DNA of 64,000 nt, taken from Planctomycetota bacterium. Its GTDB lineage: Bacteria; Planctomycetota; JACOTG01. Below, piece by piece: positions 1,079 through 41,719 of this stretch (the first letter of the stretch is position 1; each line of letters starts with the position of its first letter). Under the pieces are notes generated by a model. It made no database searches. It was given only the letters and a program-made list of their open reading frames with translations, and was not told the origin of the DNA. The position numbers and the translations under genes were made by a program. The stretch spans positions 1,810 through 65,809 of the forward strand of contig JACOTG010000079.1 in assembly GCA_016178505.1 (NCBI GenBank). The letters are read 5' to 3'.

Positions 1079-4000
1079 ATGCACGTCCAGTACCCGCGCG
1101 CCTTCGCGCTCCTCGTCCTGTTCGCCAGCGCGACGATGGTTCGGGCCCAGGACACGACGTCCGCCCCCGACATCACGAAACAGCCGACGCTCTACGTGGT
1201 CGGGTATGCGCACCTCGACACGCAGTGGCGGTGGATCTACCCGCAAACGATTCGCGAGTACTTGGCGAACACGCTCCATGACAACTTCAAGCTGTTCGAA
1301 AGTCATCCGCAGTACGTCTTCAACTTCACGGGCTCGCGCCGCTACCAGATGTTCAAGGAGTACTTCCCCGCAGACTACGAGAAGCTGAAAAGCTACGTCA
1401 ACGCCGGCCGCTGGTTTCCGTGCGGCTCCTCCGTCGACGAGAACGACACGAACACGCCGTCGGCCGAGTCGCTGATCCGGAACGTGATGTACGGCAATCG
1501 CTTCTTCCGACGCGAGCTGGGCGTCGCCAGCAGCGAGTACATGCTGCCGGATTGCTTTGGCTTCACCGCGTCGGTGCCGAGCATCCTCGCGCACTGTGGC
1601 ATCAAGGGATTCTCGACGCAGAAGCTCACGTGGGGCTCCGTCGTCGGCATCCCGTTCAAGGTCGGAGTCTGGGAAGGCCCGGACGGACACAGCGTGATCG
1701 CCGCACTCGATCCCGGCTCGTACGGCGGAGACATCGACGAAAACTTGGCCAACAGTGAGACGTGGCGAACCCGCATCGAGGCCAACGGCAAACAGTCTGG
1801 AGTTTTCGCGGACTTCCACTATTACGGCACCGGCGACGTCGGCGGCTCGCCAAACGAGAAGTCGGTCACGATGCTCGAGGAGAGCCTGTCGACGAAGGGC
1901 CCCGTTCACGTGATCGCGGGCCGCGCCGACGCTCTCTTCGAAGCGATCACGCCAGCGATGAAGGAGCGCCTCCCGCACTACAAAGGCGAACTCGAGCTCA
2001 CCGAGCACTCGGCGGGCTCGCTGACCTCGCAAGCGGCAATGAAGCGGTGGAACCGCAAGAACGAACTCCTCGCCGACGCGGCCGAGCGCGCGTCGGTCCT
2101 CGCGTGGTGGCTCGGCGGACGCGACTATCCGTCGCAACGGCTCGAGAACGCGTGGACGCTCGTCCTCGGCTCGCAAATGCACGACATCGTCTCGGGCACT
2201 GCGCTCGCGCGCGGCTACGAGTACTCGTGGAACGACGAGCTCCTCGCCGCGAACCAGTTCCAATCCGTGCTCGAGGACGCGGTGTCCGTCGTCGCGGGAC
2301 GTCTCGACACGCGCGCCGGAGGCACGCCGCTCGTCCTGTTCAATCCCCTATCGATCGAGCGCGAGGACGTCGTCGAAGCGGAAATCCCCGGCGACGCGGC
2401 TCGGCTCGCGGGTGTGCGCGTGACGGGACCCGATGGCAAGCCGGTCCTCGCGCAGGTCCTCGGCCCGAGCAAAGCCGGCGTGCGCATCGCGTTCCTCGCG
2501 AAGGCTCCGCCGGTGGGCTTTGCCGTCTACGACGTTCGGGTGGCGGGGACCGAGCCAAACAGTGCGTCGTCGCTTCGTGTCGAGGAGAAGCAACTCGAGA
2601 ACGAGCGATGGATCGTCTCGCTGAACGACGACGGCGACGTGGCGTCGATCCGCGACAAGAAAGCGAATCGCGAGCTCCTGTCCGGTCCCGCGCGGCTTGG
2701 CCTGCACTATGAGAATCCGAGGCAGTGGCCCGCATGGAATCAGGACTTGGCGGATCGCCAGCAGCCGGCGAAGGAGTTCGTCGGCGGGCCCGCGCGGTTC
2801 CGCGTCGTCGAGCGCGGCCCGGCGCGCATCGCGGTGGAAGTGTCTCGCGACGTCGGCGGCTCGACGTTCGTGCAGCGCATCCGCCTCTCCGCGGGCGGTG
2901 CCGGCGATCGCGTCGAGTTCGACAACGACATTGCGTGGGCGACTCGCGAGCGAAGTCTGCGCGCCGCGTTCCCGCTCACCACGACCAATCCACACGCGAC
3001 GTACGACTGTCAGTCGGGGACGATCGAGCGCGGCAACGCGTCGGAGAAACAGTTCGAGTATGGGTTTCAACAGTGGTTCGACCTCACCGACTCGAGCGGC
3101 GACTACGGCGTGACCGTGATGAGCGACAGCAAGTTCGGCTCCGACAAGCCGGACGACGCGACGGTGCGGCTGACGCTCCTCCACACGCCCGGCACGCGCG
3201 GCGGCTATCCCGATCAGGGCACGCAGGACCTGGGGCGACACCGAATCCTCTACGCGCTCGAGGGGCACGCCGGCGATTGGCGTCAGGGTCGAAGCGCGCA
3301 AGAGGCCGCGCGACTGAACCAGCTGATCCTCGCGTTTCGCGCGACGCCTCACGATGGACCGCTCGGCAAGTCGTTCGCACTCTTCACGACGAGCGACGAC
3401 GACGTGCGTCTCTCCGCGATCAAGAAAGCCGAGGACGGCGACTTCGTGATCGTGCGATTGCGCGAGCTGTCGGGTCGCGACAAGAAGAGCGTTCGCATCG
3501 CCACGGCAAAGCCGATCGTCAGCGCGCGCGAGGTCGACGGACAAGAGCGCGAGATCGGCGCCGCCGACTTGCGAGACGGCGCGCTCGTCACGGACATCCG
3601 CGGCTACGAACTGCGTGCGTTCGCGATCAAGCTGGGCGAGCCCTCGGCGCGCGCGCCCAGGCCGGCGTCGACGCCACTGGCGCTGTCCTTCGACGCCGAC
3701 GTGATCAGCTCGAACGCCAACCGCTCCGACGGCGCGATGGACGCGGACGGACGCACGTTCCCCGCCGAACAGTGGCCCGCGACGATCGCCGACGGCGCGA
3801 CGACGTTTCGGCTCGGCGCGACCACGGACGGCGGAAAGAACGCCGTGACGTGCCGGGGTCAGGAGATCGCACTGCCGCGCGCCGCTGACGCCGGTGATCG
3901 CCTCGACGTCCTCGTCGCCGCCGTCACGGACGGACGCGACGCGGACGCTACGATCGCGATCGACGGCAGGCCCGTCCCGATTCGCGTTCGCGATTGGCGC

Positions 4001-5310
4001 GCCCGCGTCGGACAGTGGGATCATCGACTGTGGCCGGCCGAGGACGTCGCTCACATCACCACACGCACGACGGCGACGCGTACTACGAGTACTGTTACCT
4101 CGACACGATCTCGATCGACCTTCCAAAGGGCGCGAAGACGATCCGATTGCCGAACGACGAGCGCGTGAAGCTGTTCGCCGCGACGGTCGTGGGCTCGGCC
4201 GGCGAGCGAGTGTCCGCGGCGACGCCACTCTTCGACACGCTCGACGATCACGTGCAAGACGCGCCGCGCGTCGTGCCGGGCGCGGGCTCGTTCGCGAACG
4301 CACTGGAGGTGGCGATCGAAGGTCGGCTGTACTGGCGCGACGGCGCGATCCGCTATACGCTCGACGGCTCCGATCCGACGCCGAGCTCGCCCGCCTATCG
4401 CGGCGCGTTCTTCCTCGATCACACGGCGACGATCAAGTCGGCAATCCTCGATGCCAACGGCCGACTGGGAGCGATCGCGTCGGCGAAGATCGAAGTGCGC
4501 GACGTCACGCCGCCCTCGGTCGATCGCGTCGCGCCGGCCTACCGCTCGACGACCGTGCGCGTCCGATTCTCCGAACCCGTCGACGACTCCGCGCTCGCGG
4601 CCAAGAACTATGCGCTCGATCCGCCGATCGACGTGAAGTCGGTGGCGCGAGTCGACGCACGAGACGTGACGCTCGACCTCGCGAGCGCGCCCGTACTCGA
4701 GCGCGCCTATCACTTGAGGATCGCTGGAGTGAAGGACGCCTCGCCCGCTCACAACGCGATGGCGGCGACTTCCTTCGACCTCGTGGTGAAGGGTCCCGTG
4801 TTCCAGCTCGAACACGTGACGAGCGAACAGATGGGCACGGAAATTCGCGACGTCGCGAACCTCCCGCTGAAGGCGACCGACGCGTGGACGCTCAACTTCT
4901 TCGTGAAGACGGACAAGGAGATCGAGGATCGAACGCTCATCGCCGGGTTCGGGAAGTGCGAGCAAGCCGAGGCGGGCGGCGCACGATATCTCGCGAAGTT
5001 CTCGTCGGGAATTCACTTTTGGAGCCACAACCGCGACGTCCGAACCCACACGCCGCTCGACGTCGGTCGCTGGCAGATGCTGACGACGACGTACGACGGC
5101 CACCTCGCGCGCGTCTACAAGGACGGAAAGTCGATCGGCGAGCGCGAGATCCAGCTCGCGGACGACCAAAGCGTCGTCCACATCGCGCCGCTCGATCCGT
5201 GGGACCAGAAGCGCCGCTTCACCGGCGACATCCGCGGCCTCACGATCTGGAGCGAGGCCCTCAACGAAGACGCGATCCGCTCGCTCCAAGCCGCGTCCTC
5301 GGAACACTGA
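1079..5310 (+). CDS. Glycoside hydrolase family 38 alpha-mannosidase with a C-terminal Ig-like plus LamG (concanavalin-like) domain. The gene carries an apparent +1/-1 frameshift near 4030-4080, so it is a pseudogene or a sequencing indel.
   Basis: The N-terminus is typical GH38 (YVVGYAHLDTQWRWIYPQTIREY...FNFTGSRRYQMFKEYFP) after a signal peptide. ORF 1079..4168 reads into nonsense (TTRTTATRTTSTVTS). Overlapping frame 3994..5310 continues a plausible protein (DGDAYYEYCYLDTISIDLPKG...LamG-like RTLIAGFGKCEQ...TIWSEALNEDAIRSLQ). An RBS (cacGGAGGattt) precedes the ATG at 1079. Confidence 0.8.
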
Positions 5311-6814: not shown

Positions 6815-6960
6815 GGAATAGACCTTCGACGTTTCGTTCGAGGGCGGCACGCGGCGACGCGCGCCGCCCTCGCGCGTTCTCCTGGATTCGCTCGTCCCGA
6901 ACCTTGGCCAGTGGTATCGCTCGGTTATGATGTGCAAGCCAGCCGAGAAGAGGGACCCGG

Positions 6961-9780
6961 ATGACCGACGATCACGCTCGCCGCGCGTTCATCGAGGCGC
7001 TGTGGAACGATGCCGATGCGGGGCAGATTCGACCGCTCGACGACTACCTGGCTCGATTTCCTCGCTGCGCCGACCTCGTCCGAAGCGAGTACGAAGCCGT
7101 CGTCGCCTGTCGAACGCCACCGTCGGATGAACGGGATGCGACGGGTCCCGACGTCTCGCGCCTCGGATCCGCACAGCCGCCGCCGATAGGCCTTCGGAGG
7201 GAGTCGACGTTTGGCTCGTATCGGATCCTCGCACCTCTTGGCCGCGGCGGACAAGGCGCCGTCTACCTGGCCGAGGACCTGCGCCTGCGCCGTCGCGTCG
7301 CGCTGAAGATCTTGAACCCCGCGATCACGTTGTCGGACGACGCGCTGCGCCGTTTCCAGCGCGAGGCGGAGGCGGCGGCGCGCCTGAACCACCCTGCGAT
7401 CTGCTCGGTGTACGAGGTCGGCGCAGCCGATGGCGTGCCGTACATCGCCATGCAGTACTTCGAGGGAGAGACGCTCGCACAATTGATCGACTCGGCCGCG
7501 GCGAGCACCGATCACGATCGCCCGTCGACCACGTGGCTTGCGTCCCGGCAGTGGGCCAACGTCGTCAAGATCGTGCGCTTGATCGAGAATGCCGCACGAG
7601 CACTGCACGTTGCCCACGAAGTCGGCATCGTTCATCGCGACGTCAAACCGGCCAACATCTTGGTCACCCGGGACGGCGTGCCGGTCATCCTCGACTTCGG
7701 GCTCGCGCGCGATCTCGAAGCCGACGCCCCGACGATCACGAAGGCCGGAGAGTTCTTCGGCACGCCGCAGTACATGTCGCCCGAGCAGATCGCGCGGCAT
7801 CCGATCCGCCTCGACCGCCGAACGGACATCTACTCCCTCGCCGTGACGCTGTACGAATGCCTGACGCTCCAGCGTCCGTTCGACGCGCCGACCCTCGAGT
7901 CGCTCTGCCAAGCCGTCCTCACCAAAGCCCCACGAGATCCGCGCCGACTGAACCCCGCGATTCCCCGCGACCTCGCGACCGTGCTCGAGACCGCGATGGA
8001 GAAGGACCGCGATCGCCGATACGGCACCGCGCTCGACTTCGCCGAGGACTTGTCCGCCGTCGCGGAGGTGCGGCCGATCCGCGCGAAACCCGTGTCGCTC
8101 GCCGGTCGAGCCGTTCGATGGGCAAAGCGCGAGCCGGCGAAAGCGGCGCTGATCTTGGTGCTCGCCGCGGTCGTCCCGACGCTCGCGGCACTCGGCGGCT
8201 ATCTCGTGGCGAGTCGATCGGACATTCAGACCGGACGACTCGTGAAGCAGCAGGAGACCGTCGATCGGTATCTGGAGGCGGGCTTCTCCGACATGCGCAA
8301 TCGCCGCTTCGCAGGGGCGAAAGCCGCGTTCGACGCCGCGATCGCTGTAGACCCACGCTGCGTGATGGCGGCCGCGGGCCTCGCAAACCTGGAAGACGAC
8401 CCTGTCGAGTTTCTCGCCGTCGTCGAGCGTTACCAGCCCCAGATGGGGGACGACGCGGACTACCAGGCCGTTCGCGCGATCGCGCTGCGGCTCGTCGGGC
8501 GCAACGAAGAAGCCGATGCCATCGGCCGCACTTCCGGATTCGAACGCAGCTCGCTACGCCATTTTCTCGACGGCTTCCAGGAGTCCTCGCGCTATGAGCG
8601 AGGCGATCGAGACGCTGCGAAGCGAGCGATTCGCGACTATGGCTTGGCGCTGTTCAAAGCAACCCGGCCCTCGTTCATCGTGCACTACCTCCGCGGTCGC
8701 GCCGCGAGAGCCGACCGCAACGTTGACGTGACCCGCGAGACGATTGCAATCCTGAAGGCCCTCTGGCCGGACCGCGTCGACACCTGGCTCGCGATCGACG
8801 AGTACCTCTTCTATGACGATCGGGCCGCGGCTCTAGCCGCGAATCGACGAGCCGCATCCATCGATCCGAAGAGTTGCGCCGTGATGGAGAGCTATGCCGA
8901 GCATGCATTCTGGGACGGCGAGTCCGAGTCGGCACTGCAGCGCTTCCGGGACGTGCTCGACGTCTACCCGGACGATCCGTCGAGTCATCTGATGATCGCG
9001 TGGACGTTCATGAACTCGGGCAGATACGACGCGGCGTTGGAGTGGTTCGAGAAGGCGAACCGCATCCGTCCTCGCGACGCGTGGTTCACGGACGTGCTCG
9101 CCGAATGCCGGCGACGACGCGGCGACATCGAGAGCGCCATCACCACTTCGAGACAAGCAATCGAGATCGATCCGACGTGCGATCGCTTCCATGTTCGTCT
9201 GGCGTCGATTCTCTTCGACGCGGGAAAGCTCGACGAGGCACTCGCTGAGGTCGATCGAGGTCTCGAACTCTACGCGGGACGTCCGTGGTCGCATTGCGTG
9301 AAGGGCCGGATTCTCGTTCGCAAAGGGAATCGAGACGCGGCGCTCGCCGAATGGGAACGCGTTCGCGCGACCGATCCCGATTACACGACGGATCCGAACT
9401 ACAGCGCCGGTATCTGCGACGTCGGGGATCTCGTCGGCGTTCGGGCCGCGCACGAGCTGCTCATCGAACTCCATCCCGACGACGCTGCCACGTGGATCGC
9501 GTTCGCCCGCTTCCTACTGGATCCGAAGGGACTCCACGTCGGGTGGGACTCCATGAGCGGGCTCCGCGCCGCGCGACGCGCTGCCGAGCTGACGAGCAAG
9601 CGCGATGCGAACGCATTGGGACTTCTCGCCGAGGCGCAATTCGTCACCGGCAACAAGCGAGCGGCCGTTGAGACGGGATCGCGGGCCCTGGATGCGCTGT
9701 CGTCCAGTGCCCCCGCCGATGCCGCGCTTCGCGAACGATTGGAAGCCGCGCTCGAGCGCTACCGGCTCGCGGCCGATTGA
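6961..9780 (+). CDS. Membrane-anchored Hanks-type Ser/Thr protein kinase with an extracytoplasmic TPR-repeat domain
   Basis: The kinase subdomains are present (LGRGGQGAVYLA...VALKIL, HRDVKPANILV, DFGLA, GTPQYMSPEQ). A TM helix (AALILVLAAVVPTLAALGGYLV) follows, and then about 500 aa of TPR-like repeats. Confidence 0.9.
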   Translation: MTDDHARRAFIEALWNDADAGQIRPLDDYLARFPRCADLVRSEYEAVVACRTPPSDERDATGPDVSRLGSAQPPPIGLRRESTFGSYRILAPLGRGGQGAVYLAEDLRLRRRVALKILNPAITLSDDALRRFQREAEAAARLNHPAICSVYEVGAADGVPYIAMQYFEGETLAQLIDSAAASTDHDRPSTTWLASRQWANVVKIVRLIENAARALHVAHEVGIVHRDVKPANILVTRDGVPVILDFGLARDLEADAPTITKAGEFFGTPQYMSPEQIARHPIRLDRRTDIYSLAVTLYECLTLQRPFDAPTLESLCQAVLTKAPRDPRRLNPAIPRDLATVLETAMEKDRDRRYGTALDFAEDLSAVAEVRPIRAKPVSLAGRAVRWAKREPAKAALILVLAAVVPTLAALGGYLVASRSDIQTGRLVKQQETVDRYLEAGFSDMRNRRFAGAKAAFDAAIAVDPRCVMAAAGLANLEDDPVEFLAVVERYQPQMGDDADYQAVRAIALRLVGRNEEADAIGRTSGFERSSLRHFLDGFQESSRYERGDRDAAKRAIRDYGLALFKATRPSFIVHYLRGRAARADRNVDVTRETIAILKALWPDRVDTWLAIDEYLFYDDRAAALAANRRAASIDPKSCAVMESYAEHAFWDGESESALQRFRDVLDVYPDDPSSHLMIAWTFMNSGRYDAALEWFEKANRIRPRDAWFTDVLAECRRRRGDIESAITTSRQAIEIDPTCDRFHVRLASILFDAGKLDEALAEVDRGLELYAGRPWSHCVKGRILVRKGNRDAALAEWERVRATDPDYTTDPNYSAGICDVGDLVGVRAAHELLIELHPDDAATWIAFARFLLDPKGLHVGWDSMSGLRAARRAAELTSKRDANALGLLAEAQFVTGNKRAAVETGSRALDALSSSAPADAALRERLEAALERYRLAAD

Positions 9781-13876: not shown

Positions 13877-15049
13877 CTATTTCGGCTCGAGCCCGGCGGC
13901 GCGAAGCGCTTTGCGCAATGCCTTCTCGTCGAAGCCGACGCCGCGCCAGAGAACGCTGCCGTCTTTTCCGATGAGGTAGTTCGTCGGGAACGTGCTGATG
14001 CCGAGCTTCAGAACGTTCGCGTCGTCACGTGGAACGGCGATGGTGTCCCACGAGTACTTCCCCGCTTTCCAGTGATCGAGGATCGCCGGCGCGGCATCGA
14101 GCCCGGGGTTCACCGAGAAGACGACGAAGTCCTGCGACGCGAGATCGCGGCTCAGCTCGGCGAGGTGTGGAAACTCCACACGGCACGTACTTCAGTGCGA
14201 GAACCAGAAGTTCAGGAGCACGATCTTGCCGCGGTAGTCGGAGAGCTTCAGACGTTTGCCGGCCGTCGGCGAGTCGCCGCCGATGTCGGGCGCGGCGGCG
14301 CGCACTGCGAGGAGGATTTCTTCGGGGCTCTTCGTGCCGTCGACCTCGACCGCGGCCGCGGGGCGACGAAACACGAACGTCTCCGCGTCGAGCTTCGGCG
14401 ATGCGTCGATCGAGCGAACGTCGAACTCGAGATGCGCGCCGTCGCTGCCGGCACCGATGTCCTCCACGATTCGTCGAATGGCGCCCGTCTTCGTCGAGAT
14501 CGAAAGCGACAGTACGTCGTTCGGCATCTTCATCGTGACGACGGTGCATGCCTCGCCGGCCACGTCTGCCTCCGACGTCGTTGCGCTCCCGAGCCGGTCT
14601 TTCCACGGCGCAGCGGTCTTGCCCGCGACGATCGCCGGCGCGTCGAAGTACGCCTGCGTGAACAAGGCCAACCCGGTTCCGGCGAGCTGGAGGATCGGTG
14701 CGGCGTCCGGCTCGATCGGCGTCGCCGAGTACGACTTCGATCCCTCGAAGTACGTCCAGAATTGCTTGCCGTCCGCGAGGCAGAAGATGCCGCCTTTGCC
14801 TCCGCCGGGATAGACGAAGTCGTAGCGCGCGAACGACGGACGCTTCATCGCGAACTGAAGCGTGAGATGATCCGCGGGCTGATCGCCGAACTTCTGCGAG
14901 CACTCGCCGGCGACGCGCACGGCATCGGCCTTCGCGAACGAGGCGAGCATCGCATCGAGCGCCGCGGACGCCGGCGGCGCTGATGGGCCCTCGGCGTGCG
15001 CGCCGACCGCGACCCCGAGCACGGCGCACGTGATCCACACTCGCGTCAT
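13877..15049 (-). CDS. Candidate selenoprotein: a secreted TlpA/ResA-like thiol:disulfide oxidoreductase (N-terminal domain of about 280 aa of unknown function plus a thioredoxin fold). An in-frame TGA at 14192-14194 aligns with the first Cys of the CxxC motif, giving U-S-T-C.
   Basis: ORF 14192..15277 ends ...GKIVLLNFWFSH at a TGA. The in-frame downstream ORF 13877..14179 begins STCRVEFPHLAELSRDL...TNYLIGKDGSVLW. Joined, the protein reads NFWFSH-U-STCRVEFPHLAEL. The TlpA consensus is NxWASWCxPCRxExPxLxEL, so Sec replaces Cys1 of CxxC. The signal-peptide start is MTRVWITCAVLGVAVGAHA at 15049. A SECIS-like hairpin starts 10 nt 3' of the UGA. Confidence 0.7.
14165..14181 (-). ncRNA. Putative bacterial SECIS hairpin (cis mRNA element) for the UGA at 14192-14194
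   Basis: The mRNA reads 5'-UGA AGUACGUGCC GUGUGGA-GUU-UCCACAC-3'. This is a perfect 7-bp stem with a small apical loop containing G and U. It begins 10 nt after the UGA, which is the spacing expected for a bSECIS. Confidence 0.5.
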
Positions 15050-22507: not shown

Positions 22508-22760
22508 GGTTCGTTCCTTTCCTGTGGAGCCGGGGCGCCAGTAGCAACCGGAAGCGAAGCTAACACGGCACGACCCTGATTCCGTCGCGATTCCGTGCGA
22601 TTCGGAGGCCCACCCGTGTCGTCGGAGCGCACTTGCCGATCCCGTTGGGAAAACCCCTCAATCGCGTGATCCGCCTTTGCCGATCACACCGCCTGCCCCT
22701 TCCTCGGGATATCTGAATCTGCGCCACACGCCGAAACGCTGAGCCCGCCGTTCCTCGCGG

Positions 22761-24218
22761 GTGGTCGGCCATTCCCTGAATCGATACGGAACGAGGAGTC
22801 GTGAGCGGTTCGAGATCGACTCGAACGCCACCCGATTCGCGGGAGGACCGTTGGAACCTAGCCACTGGCTATTCGTTTGCGCAGCGCTCGCCGTTCTATT
22901 CATCGCCCTCGCCCTCTGGCAGCGCGCGATCGATCGACGACACGCAACGCGCGTCGTCGCCGAGATCCACGATGCTCGCGAGCGCGGCACGAACCGCGCG
23001 ATCGCGCAGCATCCCACCGTCGATCCGTTGCAGTGCATCGGCTGTGGAAGCTGCGTCGCGGCCTGTCCCGAAGAAGGAGTGCTCGGTCTCGTAGATGGAA
23101 TCGCGCACGTCATTCACGCGTCGCGATGCGTCGGCCATGCGCACTGCGAGGTCGCGTGTCCGGTCGGCGCGATCTCGGTCGGACTCGGCGATATCACGAA
23201 ACGGCCCGACATTCCGATCGTCCGGGAGAACCTCGAGTCGACCGTTCCGGGGATCTACGTCGCGGGCGAGCTGGGCGGCATCGCGCTCATTCGCCACGCC
23301 GTCCTGCAAGGCACGCGCGCCGTCGAGGACATTGCGCGGCAGCTTCGCGAGCAACCGGAGCGAGATCGCGACCTCGCCGATCTCCTCGTGGTCGGCGCTG
23401 GCCCCGCCGGTCTTTCGGCCAGCCTCAAGGCGATCGAGTTCGGACTTCGCCACCTCACGATCGATCAAGACGAAGCCGGCGGCACGATCCGCAAGTACCC
23501 GAGGCGAAAGCTGACGCTGACTCAGCCGGTCGAGATTCCGCTTTACGGTCGCCTGACGAAGCACGAGTACATGAAGGAGGATCTCCTTCGACTGTGGGAA
23601 GGAATCGTCCGCGACTTCCAGGTGCCGATTCGACGGCCGGTGAAGCTGCTCTCGCTGCGCGGCGAGAAGCACGCGTTCGTCGCGGAAACGTCGGCCGGCT
23701 TTTTTCGCAGCCGGTTCGTCGTCCTCGCACTCGGACGCCGTGGGACTCCGCGAAGGCTCGGCGTGCCGGGCGAAGAGAGCGACAAGGTCCTCTACCAGAT
23801 CGCGGACGCCGCGAGCTACACGGGGCAGCGAATCCTCGTCGTCGGAGGCGGAGACAGCGCCGTCGAGGCGGCGATGGGCCTCGCAAGCCAGCCCGGCAAC
23901 GTCGTCACGATCTCCTATCGAAAGCAAGCGTTCTTTCGCCTGAAGGCTCGAAACGACGAGCGTGTCCGCGACTTCATGGCAAAGGGGCGCATTCGAGCGC
24001 TCTTCTCCTCGGAGGTGACCGCCATCGAGAACGACTCGGTGACGCTTCGCGCCGAGGACGGCGACCGATCTCGGGAGATTCGCATTCCGAACGATCACGT
24101 CTTCGTCATGGCGGGCGGCGAGCCACCGTTCGCGCTCCTTCGGGAGATCGGACTCGGATTCGGAGCGGACGGATCGAATGCGCCCATCGTCGGCCGGGCG
24201 GCCGTCTCGGTGAGTTGA
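22761..24218 (+). CDS. Membrane-anchored flavo-iron-sulfur oxidoreductase: an N-terminal TM helix, a 2x[4Fe-4S] ferredoxin domain and an FAD/NAD(P)-binding pyridine-nucleotide-disulfide oxidoreductase domain
   Basis: TM helix (HWLFVCAALAVLFIALALW). Ferredoxin motifs (CIGCGSCVAACP...CVGHAHCEVACP). Two Rossmann dinucleotide motifs (IYVAGELGG..., LLVVGAGPAGLSA, ILVVGGGDSAVE). A GTG start at 22761 is assumed. Confidence 0.75.
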   Translation: MVGHSLNRYGTRSRERFEIDSNATRFAGGPLEPSHWLFVCAALAVLFIALALWQRAIDRRHATRVVAEIHDARERGTNRAIAQHPTVDPLQCIGCGSCVAACPEEGVLGLVDGIAHVIHASRCVGHAHCEVACPVGAISVGLGDITKRPDIPIVRENLESTVPGIYVAGELGGIALIRHAVLQGTRAVEDIARQLREQPERDRDLADLLVVGAGPAGLSASLKAIEFGLRHLTIDQDEAGGTIRKYPRRKLTLTQPVEIPLYGRLTKHEYMKEDLLRLWEGIVRDFQVPIRRPVKLLSLRGEKHAFVAETSAGFFRSRFVVLALGRRGTPRRLGVPGEESDKVLYQIADAASYTGQRILVVGGGDSAVEAAMGLASQPGNVVTISYRKQAFFRLKARNDERVRDFMAKGRIRALFSSEVTAIENDSVTLRAEDGDRSREIRIPNDHVFVMAGGEPPFALLREIGLGFGADGSNAPIVGRAAVSVS

Positions 24219-24221
24219 GCC

Positions 24222-25112
24222 ATGAGATCGAAATCCTTGGCGTCGTGGCTCTGGTTCTCCCTCGGCCTTGTGTCGGCGGCCGCCATTGCGCTGTTCGTCG
24301 CGTTTCACTGGGGCTACTACTCGCTTCCCTTCGCCGCGCGACCGCTCGATCCGCGGAACGCGAGCTTGCGCCCGGCGGGATCACTCGGACTTGCGTTCGG
24401 GATCGTGGGCTCCGTCCTCATGCTCTTGAACCTTCTCTATCTCGTGAGGAAGCGCTTCCGCGCGCTCACCGTGCTCGGCTCGCTCCGCGGCTGGATGGGA
24501 TTTCACGTCCTGACCGGCTCGATCGCCGCCGCGCTGATCCTCCTCCACAGTGCATTCCTACCGCGAAGCGCGCTCGCGATCCTCGGCTCGGCATCGCTGC
24601 TCGTCGTGATCGTATCGGGTGTGGTCGGTCGGTTCATCTACGCGCGAGTGCCGCGATCGGTCGAGGGCCGCGAGCTGGAGCTGGAGGAGATCCGTCGCCA
24701 GCTCGAGGCGCATCGGCGCGAGCTGATGACGCTCGGCGTCGATCCTCGATCATCGATCCTCGACCCGCGTTCGCGGTTCACGACGGATCCGACGAAGCGA
24801 ACCGGCTTCCTTTCGACGCTCGGTGTTCTCGCGTTCGGCGATCGCGACGCGCGAGAACAATACGCCACGGCACGCGCGGCCGTGCTCGCGTCCGACGCAC
24901 CGCGCGCGTCGTCGCGCCGGATCTGTCGATTGCTCGGGGAACTCGGTCGCGAGCGTAGCTGGCTCGCCCGTTACGCCGAGCTGCGCTCGCTCATGAGCTC
25001 GTGGCGATTCCTCCACCGCTGGCTCGCCGTCCTCATGCTGGTTCTCGCGGCCTTCCACGTGGCGATCGCCCTGCATTTCGGCGACCTCTGGATATTCCAC
25101 GTGGTGCGCTAG
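24222..25112 (+). CDS. Integral membrane protein with 5 predicted TM helices and conserved intramembrane His pairs. It is a putative di-heme b-type cytochrome (PepSY_TM- or NarI-like electron-transfer subunit).
   Basis: TM helices carry His spaced 13-14 residues apart (GFHVLTGSIAAALILLHSAF; FLHRWLAVLMLVLAAFHVAIALHF; AFHWGYY). The start lies 4 nt after the oxidoreductase stop. The stop TAG overlaps the GTG start of the next gene (TAGTG). Confidence 0.5.
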   Translation: MRSKSLASWLWFSLGLVSAAAIALFVAFHWGYYSLPFAARPLDPRNASLRPAGSLGLAFGIVGSVLMLLNLLYLVRKRFRALTVLGSLRGWMGFHVLTGSIAAALILLHSAFLPRSALAILGSASLLVVIVSGVVGRFIYARVPRSVEGRELELEEIRRQLEAHRRELMTLGVDPRSSILDPRSRFTTDPTKRTGFLSTLGVLAFGDRDAREQYATARAAVLASDAPRASSRRICRLLGELGRERSWLARYAELRSLMSSWRFLHRWLAVLMLVLAAFHVAIALHFGDLWIFHVVR

Positions 25113-27067
25113 TGTTGCTGCATCCACGAGCCCCCCTCGTCGCGGGAACGCTGGCGCTCCTCGGGATCGCCGCCTACTTGGCCGTTTTCGATGCCGCGCC
25201 GGGAGGCTTCACCTCCGCGCATGCTCAGATCCCGGGCGTCTCGCTGCTCGGCAACTGCGACAAGTGCCACTCGCCGGCGGGGCTCGCGAAAGGATGCCTC
25301 GGATGTCACACCGAGATCGCGAACGAGATCGCGGCGAAGACGGGCCTTCACGGCTACTTGTCGAACGAGGGTGAGACGGCGTGCGGCTCGTGCCACGTCG
25401 TGCATGGCGAGAAGGACGATCCGCTCGTCGGCGCCCTCGCGTGGGGCGAGAAGGGTCGCAGCGGCTTCACGCATCCTCACGTCGACTTCCGCCTGGTCGG
25501 GCGACACGACAGTCTGGCGTGCGAGTCCTGTCACGAAATCAAGGACATGAAGCCGTTCGCCCTCCCCGCATTTCCGGCGCTCGTTCGCTCGCACACGTTT
25601 CTCGGGCTTGCACAGGATTGCACGCGCTGTCACGCGGATCCGCACGCGGGTGGACTCTCACTCGACTGTGAGGAGTGCCATTCTCAGGATCGGTTCAAGC
25701 CGGCGGCTCGCTTCGATCACGACACGTACTATCCGCTGCGCGGCGGTCATGCGACCGCGCGGTGCGATCGCTGCCACGTCGTCACCAACGCCGGCGAGCC
25801 CGGCGGAAGCCTGCACTTCAAGGAAGTGCGCGGAATCCGCTGCGTGGAGTGCCACGAGAATCCGCACCGGGTGAACTGGGGGCAGGAGTGCGAGTCGTGC
25901 CACGCGAACGACGGCACTCCATGGACCGCGGCGACCGCCCGCGTGACGCCAGACATCCACGCACTCACGGGCTTTCGCATCGTCTTGCCACACGCCACCG
26001 TGCAGTGTGAGGGCTGTCATCCCGCGAATCTCCCGTTCGCCGCGAGATACCCCGACCCGCGAAGCTCGGACTATCGACGCAACGAAACGCACTGTGACGG
26101 CTGCCACGCCGACGTACACAAGGGTCAGTTCGCGGCAACGCACTCGAGCTGCCTCGACTGCCACGAGGCGACGCACTTCGTTCCCGCACGCTTCGGCTTG
26201 GCCGAGCACGTGACGTTCGCGCTGAAGGAATCGCACGTCGCAGCGCCTTGCGGTGCCTGCCACGAGGTCGACGCGATGACGCAAGTGCGCACGTTCGTTC
26301 CGACCGCGCGCGAGTGCGAGGGGTGCCACCGCGATCCGCATGACGGACAGTTCGCCGCCAGTCCCGGCGGCTGTCGCGACTGTCACGGCGAGACGCACTT
26401 CACGCCGGCGCACTTCAGCGTGACCGATCACGATCACACGTCCTTCCCGCTCGCCGGCGCGCACGCCGCCGTTTCCTGTCGGTCATGTCATCGCGTCGAC
26501 TCCACGACCGCCGTCCGTCGGTTCAAGGACACGACGCGAGAGTGCAAGGCCTGTCATCGGAATCCGCATGGCCCACAGTTCACGACAGAGCTGGCGTCGG
26601 AAGACTGCACGGCGTGTCACCGCGCCGCGTTGGACACGTTCGCGATCCGGCCGTTCGACCACGCCAAGCGCACCGGATGGGCGCTCACCGGCGCACACGC
26701 GACCGCGACGTGCGAGGCGTGCCACGGCGTGCGCAAGTCGACCGACGCGCGAGGCATCGTGGCCAGCGTTCGGGTCTACCGGGACACGCCGAAGACCTGC
26801 GACTCATGCCACCGCGACGTCCACATGGGTCAGTTCCGCGAGGGGGAAAACGTCGCGTGCGAAAGCTGCCATCCCTCCACTCGAACGTGGAACGACCTCG
26901 CGTTCGATCACAACACACAGTCGACGTTCGTTCTCGACGGCGCTCACGCCAAGGTGCCCTGTCAGAGCTGTCACCCGAGCGTGAAGGTCGCCGAGGATCG
27001 ATTCGTCATTCGGTTCAAACCTGTCGGAAGAGAGTGCAAGGACTGCCATGCATTTCCCGAGCGGTAA
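25112..27067 (+). CDS. Periplasmic multiheme c-type cytochrome with about 23 CxxCH motifs (doubled/paired-CXXCH family)
   Basis: Signal/TM segment (LVAGTLALLGIAAYLAVF...SAHAQ). The CxxCH motifs counted directly are CDKCH, CLGCH, CGSCH, CESCH, CTRCH, CEECH, CDRCH, CVECH, CESCH, CEGCH, CDGCH, CLDCH, CGACH, CEGCH, CRDCH, CRSCH, CKACH, CTACH, CEACH, CDSCH, CESCH, CQSCH and CKDCH. The gene is translationally coupled to the upstream membrane protein. Confidence 0.85.
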   Translation: MLLHPRAPLVAGTLALLGIAAYLAVFDAAPGGFTSAHAQIPGVSLLGNCDKCHSPAGLAKGCLGCHTEIANEIAAKTGLHGYLSNEGETACGSCHVVHGEKDDPLVGALAWGEKGRSGFTHPHVDFRLVGRHDSLACESCHEIKDMKPFALPAFPALVRSHTFLGLAQDCTRCHADPHAGGLSLDCEECHSQDRFKPAARFDHDTYYPLRGGHATARCDRCHVVTNAGEPGGSLHFKEVRGIRCVECHENPHRVNWGQECESCHANDGTPWTAATARVTPDIHALTGFRIVLPHATVQCEGCHPANLPFAARYPDPRSSDYRRNETHCDGCHADVHKGQFAATHSSCLDCHEATHFVPARFGLAEHVTFALKESHVAAPCGACHEVDAMTQVRTFVPTARECEGCHRDPHDGQFAASPGGCRDCHGETHFTPAHFSVTDHDHTSFPLAGAHAAVSCRSCHRVDSTTAVRRFKDTTRECKACHRNPHGPQFTTELASEDCTACHRAALDTFAIRPFDHAKRTGWALTGAHATATCEACHGVRKSTDARGIVASVRVYRDTPKTCDSCHRDVHMGQFREGENVACESCHPSTRTWNDLAFDHNTQSTFVLDGAHAKVPCQSCHPSVKVAEDRFVIRFKPVGRECKDCHAFPER

Positions 27068-28316
27068 TCGATCGAAGATCGTTGGCCTGCTGCTCAGCAT
27101 CGCCGTCACGATCGTCGGGCTCAGCTGCGAGACGGTCGTCTCTCGGAACGGGTGGAGCGACGACTGGGGGCCGCTCGTGCCCCATCGCACGTTCCCCGGA
27201 GACTGTGGACTGTGTCACGTCCCGGAGCGATGGGACGTGCTTCGTGCGGATTTCTCGTTCGATCACGAGAAACAAACGGGGCATCCGCTCGTCGGCGCCC
27301 ACGCCGCGGCGGCGTGTCTGCGCTGTCACAACGATCGAGGACCCGTGTCGGCGTATGTCGCTCGAGGTTGCGGCGGCTGCCACCCCGATCCTCACAAGGG
27401 CACGCTCGGGCTCGACTGTTTGCGATGCCACGAAGAGAGCCAGAACACGTGGCGCCCGGGCGGGCTCGTCGCCGACCACGCACGCACGCGATTCCCTCTC
27501 GTGGGGGTCCACGCGGCGACGCCCTGCGAGAGTTGTCACCCGCGCGCGCCAGTCGGTGATTTTCGCGGCGCTCCCGTCGACTGCGATCTCTGCCATCGTG
27601 CGGATCTCGCACGCGCCACGAACCCGGACCACGTCGCGAGCGGGTTGACTCGGGAATGCCAGCGATGCCACACGCCGACGGATTGGTCGCGCGCGACGTT
27701 CTCGCACGCCTCTTTCCCGCTCACCGGCGGCCACAATGGGCTCGCCTGTCGACGGTGTCACACGAGCGGATCGTTCGGACCGGTTGCCTCGGACTGCTAC
27801 GCGTGCCACCGCGCCGATTACGAACGACAGGCGGATCACGTGGCCTCCGGCTTCTCCCACGACTGCCGGGATTGCCACAACACGATCACGTTCAGCGACG
27901 CCGCCATCGATCACTCGGCGTTCCCGCTCACGGGCGGTCACAGTGGAATCACCTGTCGGCAATGCCACACGAGCGGAACGTACGGTCCCATACCGACGGA
28001 CTGCTTCTCTTGTCACCGCGCCGACTACGAGCGGGCACCGAATCACCTGTCCTTCGGATTCCCGCGGGACTGCACGCAGTGCCACAACACGAACACGTTC
28101 ACCGGCGCCACGTTCAGCCATTCAGCGTTCCCGCTTCGCGGACCTCACGACGTCACGTGCACGACGTGTCACCCAGGCGCGAGCGCTGCTTTGTTCACTT
28201 GCATCGTCTGCCACGCCCATGCCCAAAGCTCGATGGACAGTCACCACCGCGGTGTCAGTGGCTACAGCTACGACTCGAATGCGTGCTACCGATGCCATCC
28301 AAACGGTACACATTGA
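27048..28316 (+). CDS. Multiheme c-type cytochrome, probable lipoprotein, with about 16 CxxCH motifs
   Basis: Lipoprotein-like signal (MHFPSGNRSKIVGLLLSIAVTIVGLSC). The CxxCH motifs are CGLCH, CLRCH, CGGCH, CLRCH, CESCH, CDLCH, CQRCH, CRRCH, CYACH, CRDCH, CRQCH, CFSCH, CTQCH, CTTCH, CIVCH and CYRCH. The start overlaps the 3' end of the 23-heme gene by 20 nt. Confidence 0.85.
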   Translation: MHFPSGNRSKIVGLLLSIAVTIVGLSCETVVSRNGWSDDWGPLVPHRTFPGDCGLCHVPERWDVLRADFSFDHEKQTGHPLVGAHAAAACLRCHNDRGPVSAYVARGCGGCHPDPHKGTLGLDCLRCHEESQNTWRPGGLVADHARTRFPLVGVHAATPCESCHPRAPVGDFRGAPVDCDLCHRADLARATNPDHVASGLTRECQRCHTPTDWSRATFSHASFPLTGGHNGLACRRCHTSGSFGPVASDCYACHRADYERQADHVASGFSHDCRDCHNTITFSDAAIDHSAFPLTGGHSGITCRQCHTSGTYGPIPTDCFSCHRADYERAPNHLSFGFPRDCTQCHNTNTFTGATFSHSAFPLRGPHDVTCTTCHPGASAALFTCIVCHAHAQSSMDSHHRGVSGYSYDSNACYRCHPNGTH

Positions 28317-36436: not shown

Positions 36437-36919
36437 TCACTCCGCGCTCGTGAACAGGGCCGGCGGCGCGATGCCGAGGAGACGCAGATAGACGACGAGC
36501 TGTCCGCGATGATGGCTCTCGTGGGTCGCCGCGGTCTCCAGGATCTCGCCAACCGTGAGGTCGTGAAACGGCGCGGCGTCGCCGGGCGGGCTTCTGAGCT
36601 CGTCGAAAGTGAGTCGGTGAACGTACGCCATCGTCGCCTTCCGGACGTCGGCGAGGCGCGTGACGGCGCCGGCAAGATCCGTGCTCGAAGACGTGCCTCG
36701 ACCAAAGACGTCGAGGCTCCAATCGTCGCTTCGGCAACCGCGAACGCGCCACAGCTCGCCGTCCGCGATGTGATGCACTTGGCCTGCCGCCGTCATCATC
36801 TCGGGCTTCGGGCGGAACCCGCCGTGCGCGAGGGGAAACGCGCGCAGGAGCGTCGACGTGTAGCGGCGCTCGTTTTCGAGGAGTCGGACGAGGTTCTCGA
36901 GGCTTTCCGCTTCGGGCAT
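36437..36919 (-). CDS. DinB/YfiT-like metal-dependent hydrolase superfamily protein (DinB_2)
   Basis: Four-helix-bundle His motif ...ATHESHHRGQLVVYLRLLG. 160 aa. Confidence 0.75.
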   Translation of the reverse strand: MPEAESLENLVRLLENERRYTSTLLRAFPLAHGGFRPKPEMMTAAGQVHHIADGELWRVRGCRSDDWSLDVFGRGTSSSTDLAGAVTRLADVRKATMAYVHRLTFDELRSPPGDAAPFHDLTVGEILETAATHESHHRGQLVVYLRLLGIAPPALFTSAE

Positions 36920-37086
36920 GCACGACAGCTTGCCACAGGCCGCCGTGCGCGGCTACGTCACGCGAAGGATCACGGCGATCGCTGCGCCGATCGTCGATCG
37001 ATCCGCCGCGTCCGCGCTCCGGACGCCTCGCATCGCAGGTGCATCGGGGACGGCGGGGCTTTCGGGCGCACGCGGAGGCCTGTAAG

Positions 37087-40000
37087 ATGCGACGCGTCAC
37101 GAGGCCGGCTCCCGAAGCCTTGCACCCGCACCGACGCGGAAAACAGTTGCCCACGAGAAAAAGAACTCTCCCAAAGAAAGCTCCGGTGAGTCGCGCGCGT
37201 GAGCGACTCGTCCGGTCACGACGCCGATCTCCTGCGTCGACGGCGACGGAGCCCGCGGACCCGAGTCCCAAGAATCGCGCCACACGCAAGCGTGGCCGTC
37301 ACGCCATTGCCGGCCCGCTCGCGATCGCCGGCATCGCGGCTTCGGCAGGCGGGCTCGACGCGTTGAAGAGGTTGTTCGGCGCGGCGCCGTCCGACTCGGG
37401 AATCGCGTTCATCGTCGTTCCGCACTTGGCCCCCGCGCACGAAAGCCTCATGGCCGAACTCCTCGCGAAACAGACAGACATGCCCGTCGCGGAGGCCAGG
37501 GAAGGCGCGGCGGTCGAAGCCAACCACGTCTACGTCATCCCGCCCAACAAGTACTTGTCGATCCGGCGCGGTCGGCTTCGACTGACTGGCCCGGTCTCGA
37601 AGCAGGTTTGGCAGACGCCGATCGACTTGTTCCTCCGTTCCCTCGCCGAGGATCAACGCGAGCGTGCGATCGGAATCGTCCTCTCGGGCACCGGGTCGCA
37701 CGGCACGGTGGGACTGAAGGCCGTGAAAGAAAACGGCGGAATGACGATCGTGCAGGACCCAACGACGGCGGACTACGGCCAAATGCCCCAGAGCGCGATC
37801 GACGCGGAGGTCGCGGACTTCGTGCTTCCGCCGGCGAAGATGCCCGAAGCCCTGGCGCAGTACGTGAGACACCCCTACGTCCGCACAGCCGACACGGCGT
37901 TGGCAAGCGGAGACGCTTGGAACGCCCTGAACGAAATCGTGTCGCTCCTTCGCACGAAGACTCGTCATTACTTCGGCTGCTACCGGCGAAAAATGCTTCG
38001 ACGCCGAATCGAGCGGCGCATGAGCTTGAATCACATCGAACGGCTCGGGGACTACCTCGAGCTCCTGCAGACGCGTCCGGACGAGGTGCGACGGCTCTCG
38101 AAGGACCTACTGATCAGCGTCACGTCGTTCTTCCGAGAACCCGATTCTTTCCGCGTGCTCGAGACGAAGGTGATCCGCGATCTCGTGCGGCGGATTCCCG
38201 GCGATTCGCCGATCCGTGTCTGGGTGCCGGGGTGCGCGACGGGCGAGGAGGCGTACTCGATCGCGATCCTCTTCCTCGAGAAATTGTCCGCTGCGTCCAA
38301 GAATTGCCCACTCCAGGTGTTCGCGTCGGATGCGGACGACGCCGCCCTCGAAATCGGGCGGCAGGGCGTATATCCCGACGGGATCACGGCGGACGTGTCG
38401 GCGAAGCGACTCTCACGCTTCTTCACCCGAACCGCGGACCAGTGTTATCGCGTCAACAAGCAGCTGCGCGATTCCGTGGTCTTCGCGCGGCAGAACTTGA
38501 TCGGCGACGCTCCGTTCTCCAAGCTCGACCTGATCAGTTGTCGAAACCTGCTCATCTATCTCGAGCCCGACGTGCAGAAGAAGGTCATCTCCCTGCTGCA
38601 CTTCGCGCTGAACGAGCGGGGCTATCTCTTCCTGGGTCCCGCGGAGTCGATCGGCCGGCAGGGCGACCTGTTCGACGCGATCTCGGCGAAGTGGCGCATC
38701 TATCGACATGTCCGGCGCGGACGGGCCCACGCGGTCGACTTCCCCATCGTGTCGGGGATCGCGCAACGAATCGAAACTCGACGTGGGACCGAGATCTCCG
38801 CGTCGCACTCCGCGAGCGTGTCGCAGCAACTGACGCAACACCTCCTCCTCCAGGATTTCGCGCCGGCGGCCGTGCTCATCGGCCGCGCGTCGGAGATCCT
38901 CTACTTCCACGGCCCGACGATGCGGTATCTCGACCAGCCGAGCGGTGAGCCGACGCGCGATCTGATGGCAATGGCGCCCGACGGGATTCGCTCGAAGCTT
39001 CGCGCTGCCGTGCGCAAGGCGCTTCGCGACAAGAGTCGCGTCACGGTGTCGGCGACGTGGCTGGGTCGACGTGGAAACGGCCGTCGCGTCCGACTCACTG
39101 CGAGACCGATCCACGCGCCGCGCGTCGGTACCGGTCTCGTCCTCGTGACGTTCGAGGACGAACAGGCGCCGGCCACGAAGCGAAACGTCGCCGTAGAGTT
39201 GAGCGAGCCGTCTTTGGTTCACCACCTCGAGGACGAGCTTCGGATCACCCGAGAAGATCTCCGGAACACGGTCGGAGAGCTGCAGGCTGCCAATGAGGAT
39301 CTCAAGTCGTCGAACGAAGAGATCGTGTCGATGAACGAGGAACTCCAGTCCGCGAACGAAGAGCTCGAAACCTCGAAGGAGGAACTCCAGTCATTGAACG
39401 AAGAGCTGAGCACGGTCAACAGCCAGCTCCAAGACAAAGTCGGGGAGCTCGAAAAGAGCAACAACGACTTGGCCAATCTGCTCACGTCGGCCGACATCGC
39501 CACCGTCTTCTTGGACACGCACCTTCGAATCCGGCGATTCACGTCGGCCGCGACGAAGCTACTGAGCCTCATCGCCACCGACGTTGGCCGTCCGCTCAGC
39601 GACATCTCCCTCAAGTTCGACGACGACCAACTCTTCGCAGATCTCGATCGAGTGATGCGTGACGCCACGCCGCGCCAGAAGGAGGTGAGCACGAACGGCG
39701 GGCGCTATTGCCTCCGGCGAATCCTCCCGTACCGAACGACGGAAGGTCTAATCGAGGGCGTAGTCATCACGTTCACGGACATCAGCGAGGCGAAGCTGGC
39801 GGACGAGCACATGAAGCGGCTGGCGACGGTCCTCATGGACTCGAATGATGCCGTCACCGTCCAGGATTTCGACGGTCGCATTCTCGCTTGGAACCGCGGA
39901 GCCGAGCGGATGTACGGGTACAGCCAGGCCGAGGCGATGAAGATGAACGCATCGAAGCTCGTACCCGAGGCGCTTCGCCCGGACACCGAAGCCACGACCG

Positions 40001-40797: not shown

Positions 40798-40828
40798 CGT
40801 GCACGGAGGCGAAAAGCCACTCGAGAAG

Positions 40829-41476
40829 ATGCGCGCGCGAATCCTCATCGTCGACGACCATCCCTTGGTGAGAGACGGGCTCGCTGGACGAATCTCGAAG
40901 CAGCCCGACCTGGAAGTGTGCGGCGAGGCGGCCGACGTGCCCGGAGCCCTTCGGTTGGTGGCATCGACGAAGCCCGACCTGGCGATCATCGACATCTCGC
41001 TGAAGGGAGGCGACGGGCTCGACTTGATCAAACAAGTCCGCGCCCGCAAATTCGAGACGAAGATGCTCGTGGCGTCGATGTACGACGAGATCCTCTATGC
41101 CGAGCGTGCCTTGCGCGCCGGCGCGATGGGCTACATCAACAAGCAAGAACTGCCCGAGGACATGATCGACGCCATCCGGCAGGTGCTCGCCGGACAGATC
41201 TACCTCAGTGCGCAAATGAGAAATCGATTGCTCCAACGAACGGTGGGCCGTGGCCCCGTGGCGATCCGGTCCCCGATCGAGAGCCTGACCGATCGCGAGC
41301 TCGAGATCTTCCAGTTGATCGGACGCGCCCTCACCACCCGGCAAATTGCCGAGAAGCTCCATCTCAGCATCAAGACGATCGAGACGCACCGCGAGCGCCT
41401 CAAGATGAAGCTCAAGGCGAAGAACGCGGCGGAGCTGAGCCGCCAAGCGGTGGCGTGGACGATCGAGAACGCCTGA
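40829..41476 (+). CDS. NarL/FixJ-family response regulator (REC plus LuxR-type HTH)
   Basis: REC domain (MRARILIVDDHPLVRDGL...DLAIIDISLKGGDG). HTH domain (LTDRELEIFQLIGRALTTRQIAEKLHLSIKTIETHRERLKMKL). Confidence 0.9.
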   Translation: MRARILIVDDHPLVRDGLAGRISKQPDLEVCGEAADVPGALRLVASTKPDLAIIDISLKGGDGLDLIKQVRARKFETKMLVASMYDEILYAERALRAGAMGYINKQELPEDMIDAIRQVLAGQIYLSAQMRNRLLQRTVGRGPVAIRSPIESLTDRELEIFQLIGRALTTRQIAEKLHLSIKTIETHRERLKMKLKAKNAAELSRQAVAWTIENA

Positions 41477-41719
41477 TTTCTCGTCCTCTCTTCCAAGACT
41501 CCAACGGCCCCGTCGGGAAATCCCCCACAACCGAATCAGTTTCGTGCCGATTGTCGCGCCTCGGGATGAGCGTACTGTGCTCATTCGAATTTGGTTCGGC
41601 GCGCGAGCGTCGATTGGCGGGAGCGCGCGGCGGGTCGCTTGCTCTCAACGCATCCCGCTCGGGGGAATGGGCGACGGTTGGGAGTTCAGCCCTCAGCGCC
41701 GATCGATCGGAGACAGGTC

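Follow-up and report, generated by a model that had tools for sequence, protein, structure and literature searches.

Within a 64,000-nucleotide stretch of DNA from an uncultured planctomycete (the window, numbered here from its first letter), the minus strand from 15049 to 13877 carries a gene for a protein with a TlpA/ResA-like thioredoxin (Trx) domain, interrupted by one in-frame TGA at the first position of the CxxC redox motif. Judged from comparison with its homologs, this is a genuine selenocysteine (Sec)-encoding gene in which UGA 286 is read as Sec, with a probability of about 90%. The comparative data show that local recoding of the UGA would be needed to make the conserved full-length protein, and a hairpin directly downstream has the features of a bacterial Sec insertion sequence (SECIS).

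Read from 15049 to 13877, the minus strand forms a single frame of 390 codons, ended by TAG at 13879-13877 and containing one internal stop, the TGA at 14194-14192 (codon 286). The sequence around this stop is ...GKIVLLNFWFSH*STCRVEFPHLAEL..., and the longer context of codon 286 is ...DYRGKIVLLNFWFSH-TGA-STCRVEFPHLAELSRDL... The initial annotation held that the frame stays open past the TGA, which is borne out, as no second internal stop occurs. It also described a 361-aa open reading frame (ORF) ending at the TGA; the end is right, and the start, taken from a mechanical TTG-to-stop ORF, is probably not. Start candidates, supported by homologs and by a signal-peptide-like leader, are ATG 15049 and a GTG three codons downstream, the latter being the GenBank choice. 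Homologs open with similar hydrophobic leaders, and the likely start is ATG 15049, ahead of the signal-peptide-like MTRVWITCAVLGVAVGAHA/EG. Coding signal is present on both sides of the UGA, with G+C at third codon positions (GC3) of 0.82 in each half and at second positions (GC2) of 0.56 and 0.45, in a window of 66% GC. In GenBank, the gene is split into HYR85_07875 (282 aa, 14195-15040) and HYR85_07870 (100 aa, 13877-14179), both named "hypothetical proteins" (MBI1850246/7 and, in a twin metagenome-assembled genome (MAG), MBI3848156/7). The GTG start assigned to HYR85_07870 (14179) falls within the stem of the hairpin. A search of the window for further in-frame TGAs flanked on either side by coding signal left only the one at 14194; the other candidates were rejected as antisense frames or as adjacent genes sharing a frame by chance. 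The features of the gene are as follows.

13877..15049, minus strand: whole predicted selenoprotein coding sequence, 390 codons including Sec286, aligned with the full-length Cys homolog P0002 and with Sec homologs.
14993..15049, minus strand: predicted Sec-type (secretory) signal peptide MTRVWITCAVLGVAVGAHA/EG, residues 1-19, judged by eye.
14339..14968, minus strand: N-terminal LolA-like/DUF2092-like beta-barrel domain, about residues 28-237, from a Pfam match below cut-off and the model of a homolog.
13880..14302, minus strand: C-terminal TlpA/ResA/DsbE-like thioredoxin-fold domain, residues 250-390, from Pfam, the ResA alignment and a fold match.
14192..14194, minus strand: predicted Sec-UGA, codon 286, first position of the U-S-T-C redox motif, from alignment.
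14183..14185, minus strand: TGC, Cys289, the resolving Cys of UxxC, invariant in the aligned homologs.
14165..14181, minus strand: predicted SECIS upper stem-loop GUGUGGA-GUU-UCCACAC, 7 bp with loop GUU, 10 nt past the UGA, from folding, covariation and its absence from Cys-type loci.
14154..14191, minus strand: possible extended SECIS with a lower stem round the hairpin, weakly supported and out of register with homologs.

The position of the UGA within the protein is given by the active site. In a phmmer search, VLLNFWFSH[U]STCRVEFPHLA aligned gaplessly to the active site of Bacillus subtilis ResA (8e-14), with the UGA on the first (N-terminal) Cys of CEPC (ResA Cys74) and Cys289 opposite its second Cys. 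The match takes in the active-site Glu and, close to the C-terminal end of the domain, the ...PT proline. The UGA is therefore the first Cys of CxxC, in agreement with the earlier proposal that the stop falls on the nucleophilic Cys of the TlpA/ResA motif. When the joined protein was scored against Pfam with U written as C, its C-terminal 140 residues matched Redoxin with 52.9 bits (cut-off 26.6; 4.6e-14), AhpC-TSA with 42.6 bits (cut-off 26) and Thioredoxin_8 with 32.6 bits (cut-off 27). Domain score, active site and fold all place this part of the protein in the TlpA-like/redoxin thioredoxin-fold family (PF08534, cd02966). The more specific NCBIfam models were not reached: TlpA NF047696 scored 48.6 against a cut-off of 230, ResA NF002854 46.7 against 170, DsbE TIGR00385 39.8 against 123, WAxxUGC_long NF041054 26.9 against 300 and redoxin_TUGYCR NF053656 24.6 against 100.

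In its N-terminal part, the window protein scores 17 bits with DUF2092 (PF09865; E=0.0041), below the gathering score of 21.2, and its relatives carry precomputed PF09865 matches. Structural evidence comes from an AlphaFold model (mean predicted local distance difference test score, pLDDT, 84.6) of the Cys homolog P0002, which is 42% identical to the window protein. In this model, an N-terminal open beta-barrel is followed by a C-terminal Trx fold. The barrel resembles the LolA structures 8v1k, 4ki3 and 4mxt (template modeling (TM) scores 0.62-0.73, E ~1e-11), and the Trx fold, with its TlpA/ResA insert, resembles DsbE/ResA structures including 3gl3 (TM 0.85-0.88). Because the window protein itself lies below the DUF2092 threshold, the LolA-like assignment rests on the P0002 fold and on the Pfam hits of relatives. 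From these comparisons, the predicted gene product is a two-domain protein, in which a signal peptide precedes a LolA-like barrel and a thioredoxin fold of the TlpA/ResA type; the hydrophobic leader, read by eye, suggests export through the secretory (Sec) pathway.

Homologs provide most of the evidence that the UGA is not a terminator. A word-indexed search with the joined protein gave four relevant matches. One was the window's own N-terminal fragment HYR85_07875, and another was the full-length homolog P0002, which has FWFEK-C(TGC)-GAC at the Sec column and forms a Sec/Cys pair with the window gene. Proteins P0003 and P0004 stop where the window fragment does, at ...LLNFWFEH; the contigs of both have TGA at that codon, after which the frame resumes as GGCRAEFPHLSQL... 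through a complete Trx domain. Besides the window gene, nine independent genes in all have TGA at the same codon (L001, two paralogs in L002, L078, L080, L090, L160, L161 and L162), and the Sec homologs are 27-48% identical where measured. At the DNA level, each Sec homolog has an open frame that leads into xxCRxE[FLY]P[HR]L and completes the Trx fold. The recoded stop is TGA in 10/10 genes, never TAA or TAG, and no stop or frameshift occurs in any of the 10 across ~104 codons downstream of the UGA. Alignment of orthologs, with a search for TGC or TGT at this codon, had been suggested in the initial annotation, which named a simple truncation in orthologs as evidence against a selenoprotein. 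TGC was found in P0002 and TGA is kept in nine other genes, and the annotated proteins do end at the Sec site, yet the DNA frame continues through the Trx domain. A Sec/Cys pair and a conserved UGA flanked by coding sequence on both sides, as in a bacterial selenoprotein gene, are accordingly present.

In 6/6 pairwise comparisons, the protein part following the UGA is more conserved than the part preceding it, and the ratio of nonsynonymous to synonymous substitution rates (dN/dS) in the downstream part is 0.43-0.57. For the window gene and the second L002 paralog (L002b), identity is 57.7% downstream and 43.9% upstream. The two L002 genes are tandem Sec paralogs (6829-8000 and 8001-9200), whose identity rises from 47% ahead of the UGA to 69% past it, with identical SECIS hairpins. 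This tandem arrangement recurs in L003, where the second paralog is a near-identical copy. Gene neighborhood in general differs among the homologs.

The extent of the family was estimated by a phmmer census with the N-terminal fragment against 1.84 billion representatives, which gave 130 matches at E <= 0.001; counts were taken among 140 proteins, mostly matches of that search. Annotation ends directly before the Cys/Sec position in 48 of the 140, and 40 of these 48 end in ...FWFxx. Four more proteins with the same ending escaped the search pattern, bringing the total to about 50 cluster representatives. Cys forms with FWFxxCxxC were found seven times, and no annotated U was present among the census matches. 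In a metagenome scan, the best 80 tblastn matches were mostly Cys forms and included two additional Sec genes, and a scan of genome contigs with the Cys-codon pattern returned mostly distant Cys-type TlpA genes, which served as controls, together with a second Sec family (the sister family described below) and no close orthologs. As far as these sequence counts go, Sec forms appear to outnumber Cys forms in the LolA-fused subfamily.

Some relatives depart from this pattern. In L078:2492-3595 and in P0051, P0073, P0079, P0086, P0114 and P0124, the LolA-like and Trx domains are kept and both active-site residues are lost, as in LLAFWWGEESEGLSPLQ. One such family member directly adjoins a Sec paralog, and proteins of this kind may be redox-dead partners or decoys. 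At L090:1315, a different, helical N-terminal region takes the place of the LolA-like domain ahead of a Sec TlpA domain that has the same hairpin (loop GUA); the Sec/SECIS module is therefore present in more than one architecture.

The hairpin GUGUGGA-GUU-UCCACAC reported in the initial annotation as a 7-bp stem 10 nt past the UGA was located at 14181-14165, with exactly 10 nt between UGA and stem. Its folding energy is -8.4 kcal/mol alone and -13.9 kcal/mol with a lower stem. In the published bacterial SECIS (bSECIS) model, the loop has 3-9 nt with G in one of its first two positions, the stem has 4-16 bp, the distance from UGA to loop is 16-37 nt and the minimum free energy (MFE) is <= -7.5 kcal/mol (PMC13188914). 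The window hairpin, with a 3-nt loop (GUU, G first and then U), 7 bp, a UGA-to-loop distance of 17 nt and an MFE of -8.4 kcal/mol, lies within every one of these ranges, and the bacterial SECIS geometry claimed for it is correct.

Because a hairpin alone is weak evidence in DNA of 66% GC, where chance alone would give 0.23 occurrences of this degenerate motif per window, significance was taken from comparative data. Ten distinct sequences were aligned without gaps from the UGA onward. Pairing between columns 14-20 and columns 24-30 holds in 97% of cells. Pair 17-27 is C-G in four sequences, A-U in three, U-A in two and G-C in one, and is broken in none; pair 15-29 is U-A in nine and C-G in one. 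The covariation score was reached by 0/500 shuffles, and shifting the 3' arm lowers pairing to 36-77%. Covariation links the middle position of a V/A/G/E codon to the wobble position of a Pro codon, and in L161 a His-to-Arg change is matched by a change at an Arg wobble position; the RNA therefore shapes the protein sequence. In a control set of 137 Cys-type TlpA-like loci, equivalent positions formed 7/7 pairs in none and 6/7 in three, with a mode of 3, and the locus of a Cys homolog (L004) has no hairpin. Codons of the window stem (14165-14182) are rare in this genome, whose GC3 is > 0.8, with CGT, TTT and CCA accounting for 9%, 15% and 8% of their amino acids, a codon choice that shows RNA structure overriding codon bias. 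Both covariation and restriction of the structure to UGA forms, as in a selenoprotein gene, were found, and the hairpin is, by these comparisons, a selected RNA structure. A lower stem was dropped as an element (87% paired including the upper stem). It is plausible in most homologs and is not claimed here, because it is out of register in the window gene.

Several observations weigh against a Sec reading of the UGA. In its 71-nt context, the hairpin is not more stable than shuffled sequence (z = -0.26), and an Rfam scan of the window at gathering thresholds gave no match, an uninformative blank, as Rfam is not known to hold a bacterial SECIS family. The dN/dS downstream of the UGA is just moderately below 1. 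No selA, selB or selD was found in Pfam scans of ~40 window ORFs or in the 10 kb past the right end, ARAGORN detected no tRNA in the 64-kb window, the added 10 kb held none either, and no tRNA-Sec was present in any of the loci retrieved. The sel-gene blank is uninformative, because ~74 kb were covered of a genome of several Mb. Complete selA/selB/selD sets have been published for several Planctomycetes (PMC4807772), and together with the UGAs of a sister family described below, they make Sec use plausible in Planctomycetota, with no proof for this genome.

Other explanations of the internal TGA were considered. A nonsense-mutated pseudogene, in which TGC or TGT of a Cys-type TlpA-like gene became TGA with the downstream frame still undecayed, would need a single base change (TGC to TGA) and would fit both the two separate hypothetical proteins of GenBank and the lack of sel genes in the ~74 kb inspected. 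This idea, already argued against in the initial annotation, is now extremely improbable. Nine other independent genes, with identities as low as 27%, have the same TGA, about 50 cluster representatives imply it, the frame is intact downstream in all 10 genes, a Sec/Cys pair exists, and the hairpin is kept through compensatory changes. The recurrence of TGA at one codon in homologs, together with an identity that is higher downstream than upstream, is a pattern that a pseudogene cannot explain. The UGA might instead be a true terminator, yielding a LolA-like protein of 285 residues and perhaps, from GTG 14179, a separate peptide of 100 residues, with the hairpin serving, for example, translational coupling or mRNA stability. 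This matches the GenBank annotation, and bacteria normally terminate at Sec-UGA codons to some extent. Against it, the N-terminal product would stop in the middle of the Trx fold, past the first beta strand and short of the active site, and the C-terminal product would have neither that strand nor the nucleophile, whereas Cys homologs are single polypeptides. GTG 14179 lies inside the stem, gene callers start the C-terminal fragment at differing positions in other genes, and the stop is TGA without exception in the 10 genes. True termination is therefore very unlikely.

Read-through might also occur independently of Sec, with a near-cognate tRNA inserting Trp or Cys at a low level in an organism that has no Sec trait. 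The fact that Sec machinery was seen in none of the ~74 kb would be accounted for, and insertion of Cys would give a normal CxxC. However, both the spacing and the G-U loop of the conserved stem-loop agree with the SelB-type SECIS model, and TGA is strictly kept across a deep family with no reversion to TGC, from which a selective advantage of the encoded residue is argued. TGA is also the main stop codon in the genome, and low-level misreading of this kind is given very little credence. Genome-wide reassignment of UGA was rejected, TGA being an ordinary stop that terminates 20/26 window genes; recoding at codon 286 is therefore local.

Decoding as Sec, the preferred reading, would proceed as follows. 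The hairpin, whose apical GUU loop lies 17 nt past the UGA, is predicted to act as a bacterial SECIS, and SelB-GTP carrying Sec-tRNA(Sec) would bind it with the ribosome positioned at the UGA, a step taken from established knowledge of bacterial Sec decoding. Insertion of Sec at codon 286 would give NFWFSH-U-STC-RVE. The exported protein would then act as a periplasmic thiol-disulfide reductase, as judged from the TlpA/ResA/CcmG families. The U286 selenolate would attack a substrate disulfide or sulfenate, Cys289 would resolve the resulting selenenyl-sulfide, and, on the pattern of TlpA, ResA and CcmG, a membrane electron shuttle of the CcdA/DsbD type would presumably return the U-C pair to its reduced state, although the donor is a guess. 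More speculatively, the LolA-like domain might recruit or hold a hydrophobic or lipid-modified substrate. The neighboring genes, which encode a 1557-residue HYR-domain protein, a carboxypeptidase-regulatory-like domain protein and a small ORF without a Pfam match, give no functional hint, and no adjoining cytochrome c maturation or cox/sco genes were found by Pfam among window ORFs.

Other parts of the window were also read, all on the plus strand. Positions 22743-28316 encode a 4Fe-4S/pyridine-nucleotide-disulfide oxidoreductase, a membrane protein and two multihaem cytochromes c (Cytochrome_C7, c3, MtrC-like). Positions 36664-42547 encode a CheB-CheR-PAS-histidine kinase fusion of ~1,370 residues, a LuxR-type response regulator and a protoglobin-HisKA sensor. 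The contig of the tandem Sec paralogs (L002) shares these kinase and response regulator families and a sulfatase family, which suggests related organisms. At 1079-5310, a GH38 alpha-mannosidase is annotated as a separate 1029-aa protein in one MAG (MBI1850240.1) and as fused to the next gene in the twin MAG (1436 aa, MBI3848151.1), which suggests that these two almost identical assemblies differ by a frameshift or a stop.

If the Sec reading is right, MBI1850247/MBI1850246 and their twins should be annotated as one selenoprotein instead of two "hypothetical proteins". The same error affects about 50 public protein clusters, and no current NCBIfam model catches them. Selenium use by an uncultured planctomycete would be implied, and an exported LolA-fused reductase would join the set of Sec enzymes. 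The gene also offers a clean natural case of RNA structure limiting codon and amino-acid choice, useful for SECIS models and for the engineering of short SECIS elements. Known Sec decoding and the range of Sec-using folds are left unchanged.

The initial annotation regarded a selenoprotein of this kind as unusual, which does not hold. UxxC selenoproteins of the thioredoxin/TlpA fold were predicted from 2004-2005 onward and have been catalogued since 2004-2008 (PMC1088965, PMC13188914). They include a Sargasso Sea "thiol-disulfide isomerase-like protein" with UxxC in the same fold (PMC1088965) and, in Table 1 of a 2026 review, the "Prx-like thiol:disulfide oxidoreductase", the "redoxin family protein (PF08534, UxxC)" and the "UGC-containing TlpA family" (PMC13188914); NCBIfam models of ResA-like selenoproteins also exist. 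The window protein shares with these families the thioredoxin fold, Sec as the first residue of UxxC, widespread Cys homologs and a SECIS just past the UGA. It seems to differ from them in its N-terminal LolA-like domain and in the distinctive motif NFWF-x-x-U-x-x-CRxEFPHL. The models NF041054 (ResA-like WAxxUGC) and NF053656 (TUGYCR thioredoxin-fold) likewise describe ResA-like proteins in which Sec occupies or adjoins the CxxC position, but the window motif is FSH-U-STC and the protein is a member of neither. Compared with B. subtilis ResA, Bradyrhizobium TlpA and CcmG/DsbE, the active site aligns without gaps (both Cys, the Glu three residues on and the ...PT proline), whereas the window protein has Sec for Cys, an extra LolA-like domain and, as judged by eye, a cleaved signal peptide in place of a membrane anchor.

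The hairpin can be compared with the SECIS of Escherichia coli fdhF and fdnG, which is likewise a stem-loop within the coding region right past the UGA and has a small apical loop with G followed by U. In fdhF, the minimal hairpin lies ~11 nt from the UGA, against 10 nt in the window gene. The window stem is shorter, a perfect 7 bp with a 3-nt loop and no bulged U, and binding by SelB is predicted. Within Planctomycetota, a sister TlpA-like family with FWG[DH]W-U-GPCRxMYPHERSLV has UGA at the same Cys in eight GTDB genomes (L016:3115, L018:1968, L021:3097, L030:3103, L041:3403, L049:3094, L051:3115 and 4464, L058:3115), with hosts among Pirellulaceae, Singulisphaera, Fuerstiella, Gemmataceae and Tepidisphaeraceae. 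This family differs in its flanking motif and in its conserved hairpin, CACGAGC-GGUC-GCUCGUG, ~27 nt past the UGA, which suggests independent Cys-to-Sec conversion or SECIS turnover; L021 departs from the rest of the family in sequence and fold.

A literature search found no paper connecting LolA or DUF2092 with selenocysteine, and none in which the assembly accession appears. It is tentatively proposed, with somewhat less than even confidence, that LolA-like/TlpA fusions with NFWF-x-x-U-x-x-CRxEFPHL form a distinct, uncatalogued family, with a Sec:Cys ratio of ~40:7 among 50%-identity representatives and a SECIS that constrains the protein. In that case, the LolA-like domain would point to a new class of substrates, possibly lipid-modified or hydrophobic, for periplasmic selenoenzyme reductases. 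Altogether, the window gene is a new, mis-annotated example of an already known type of bacterial selenoprotein.

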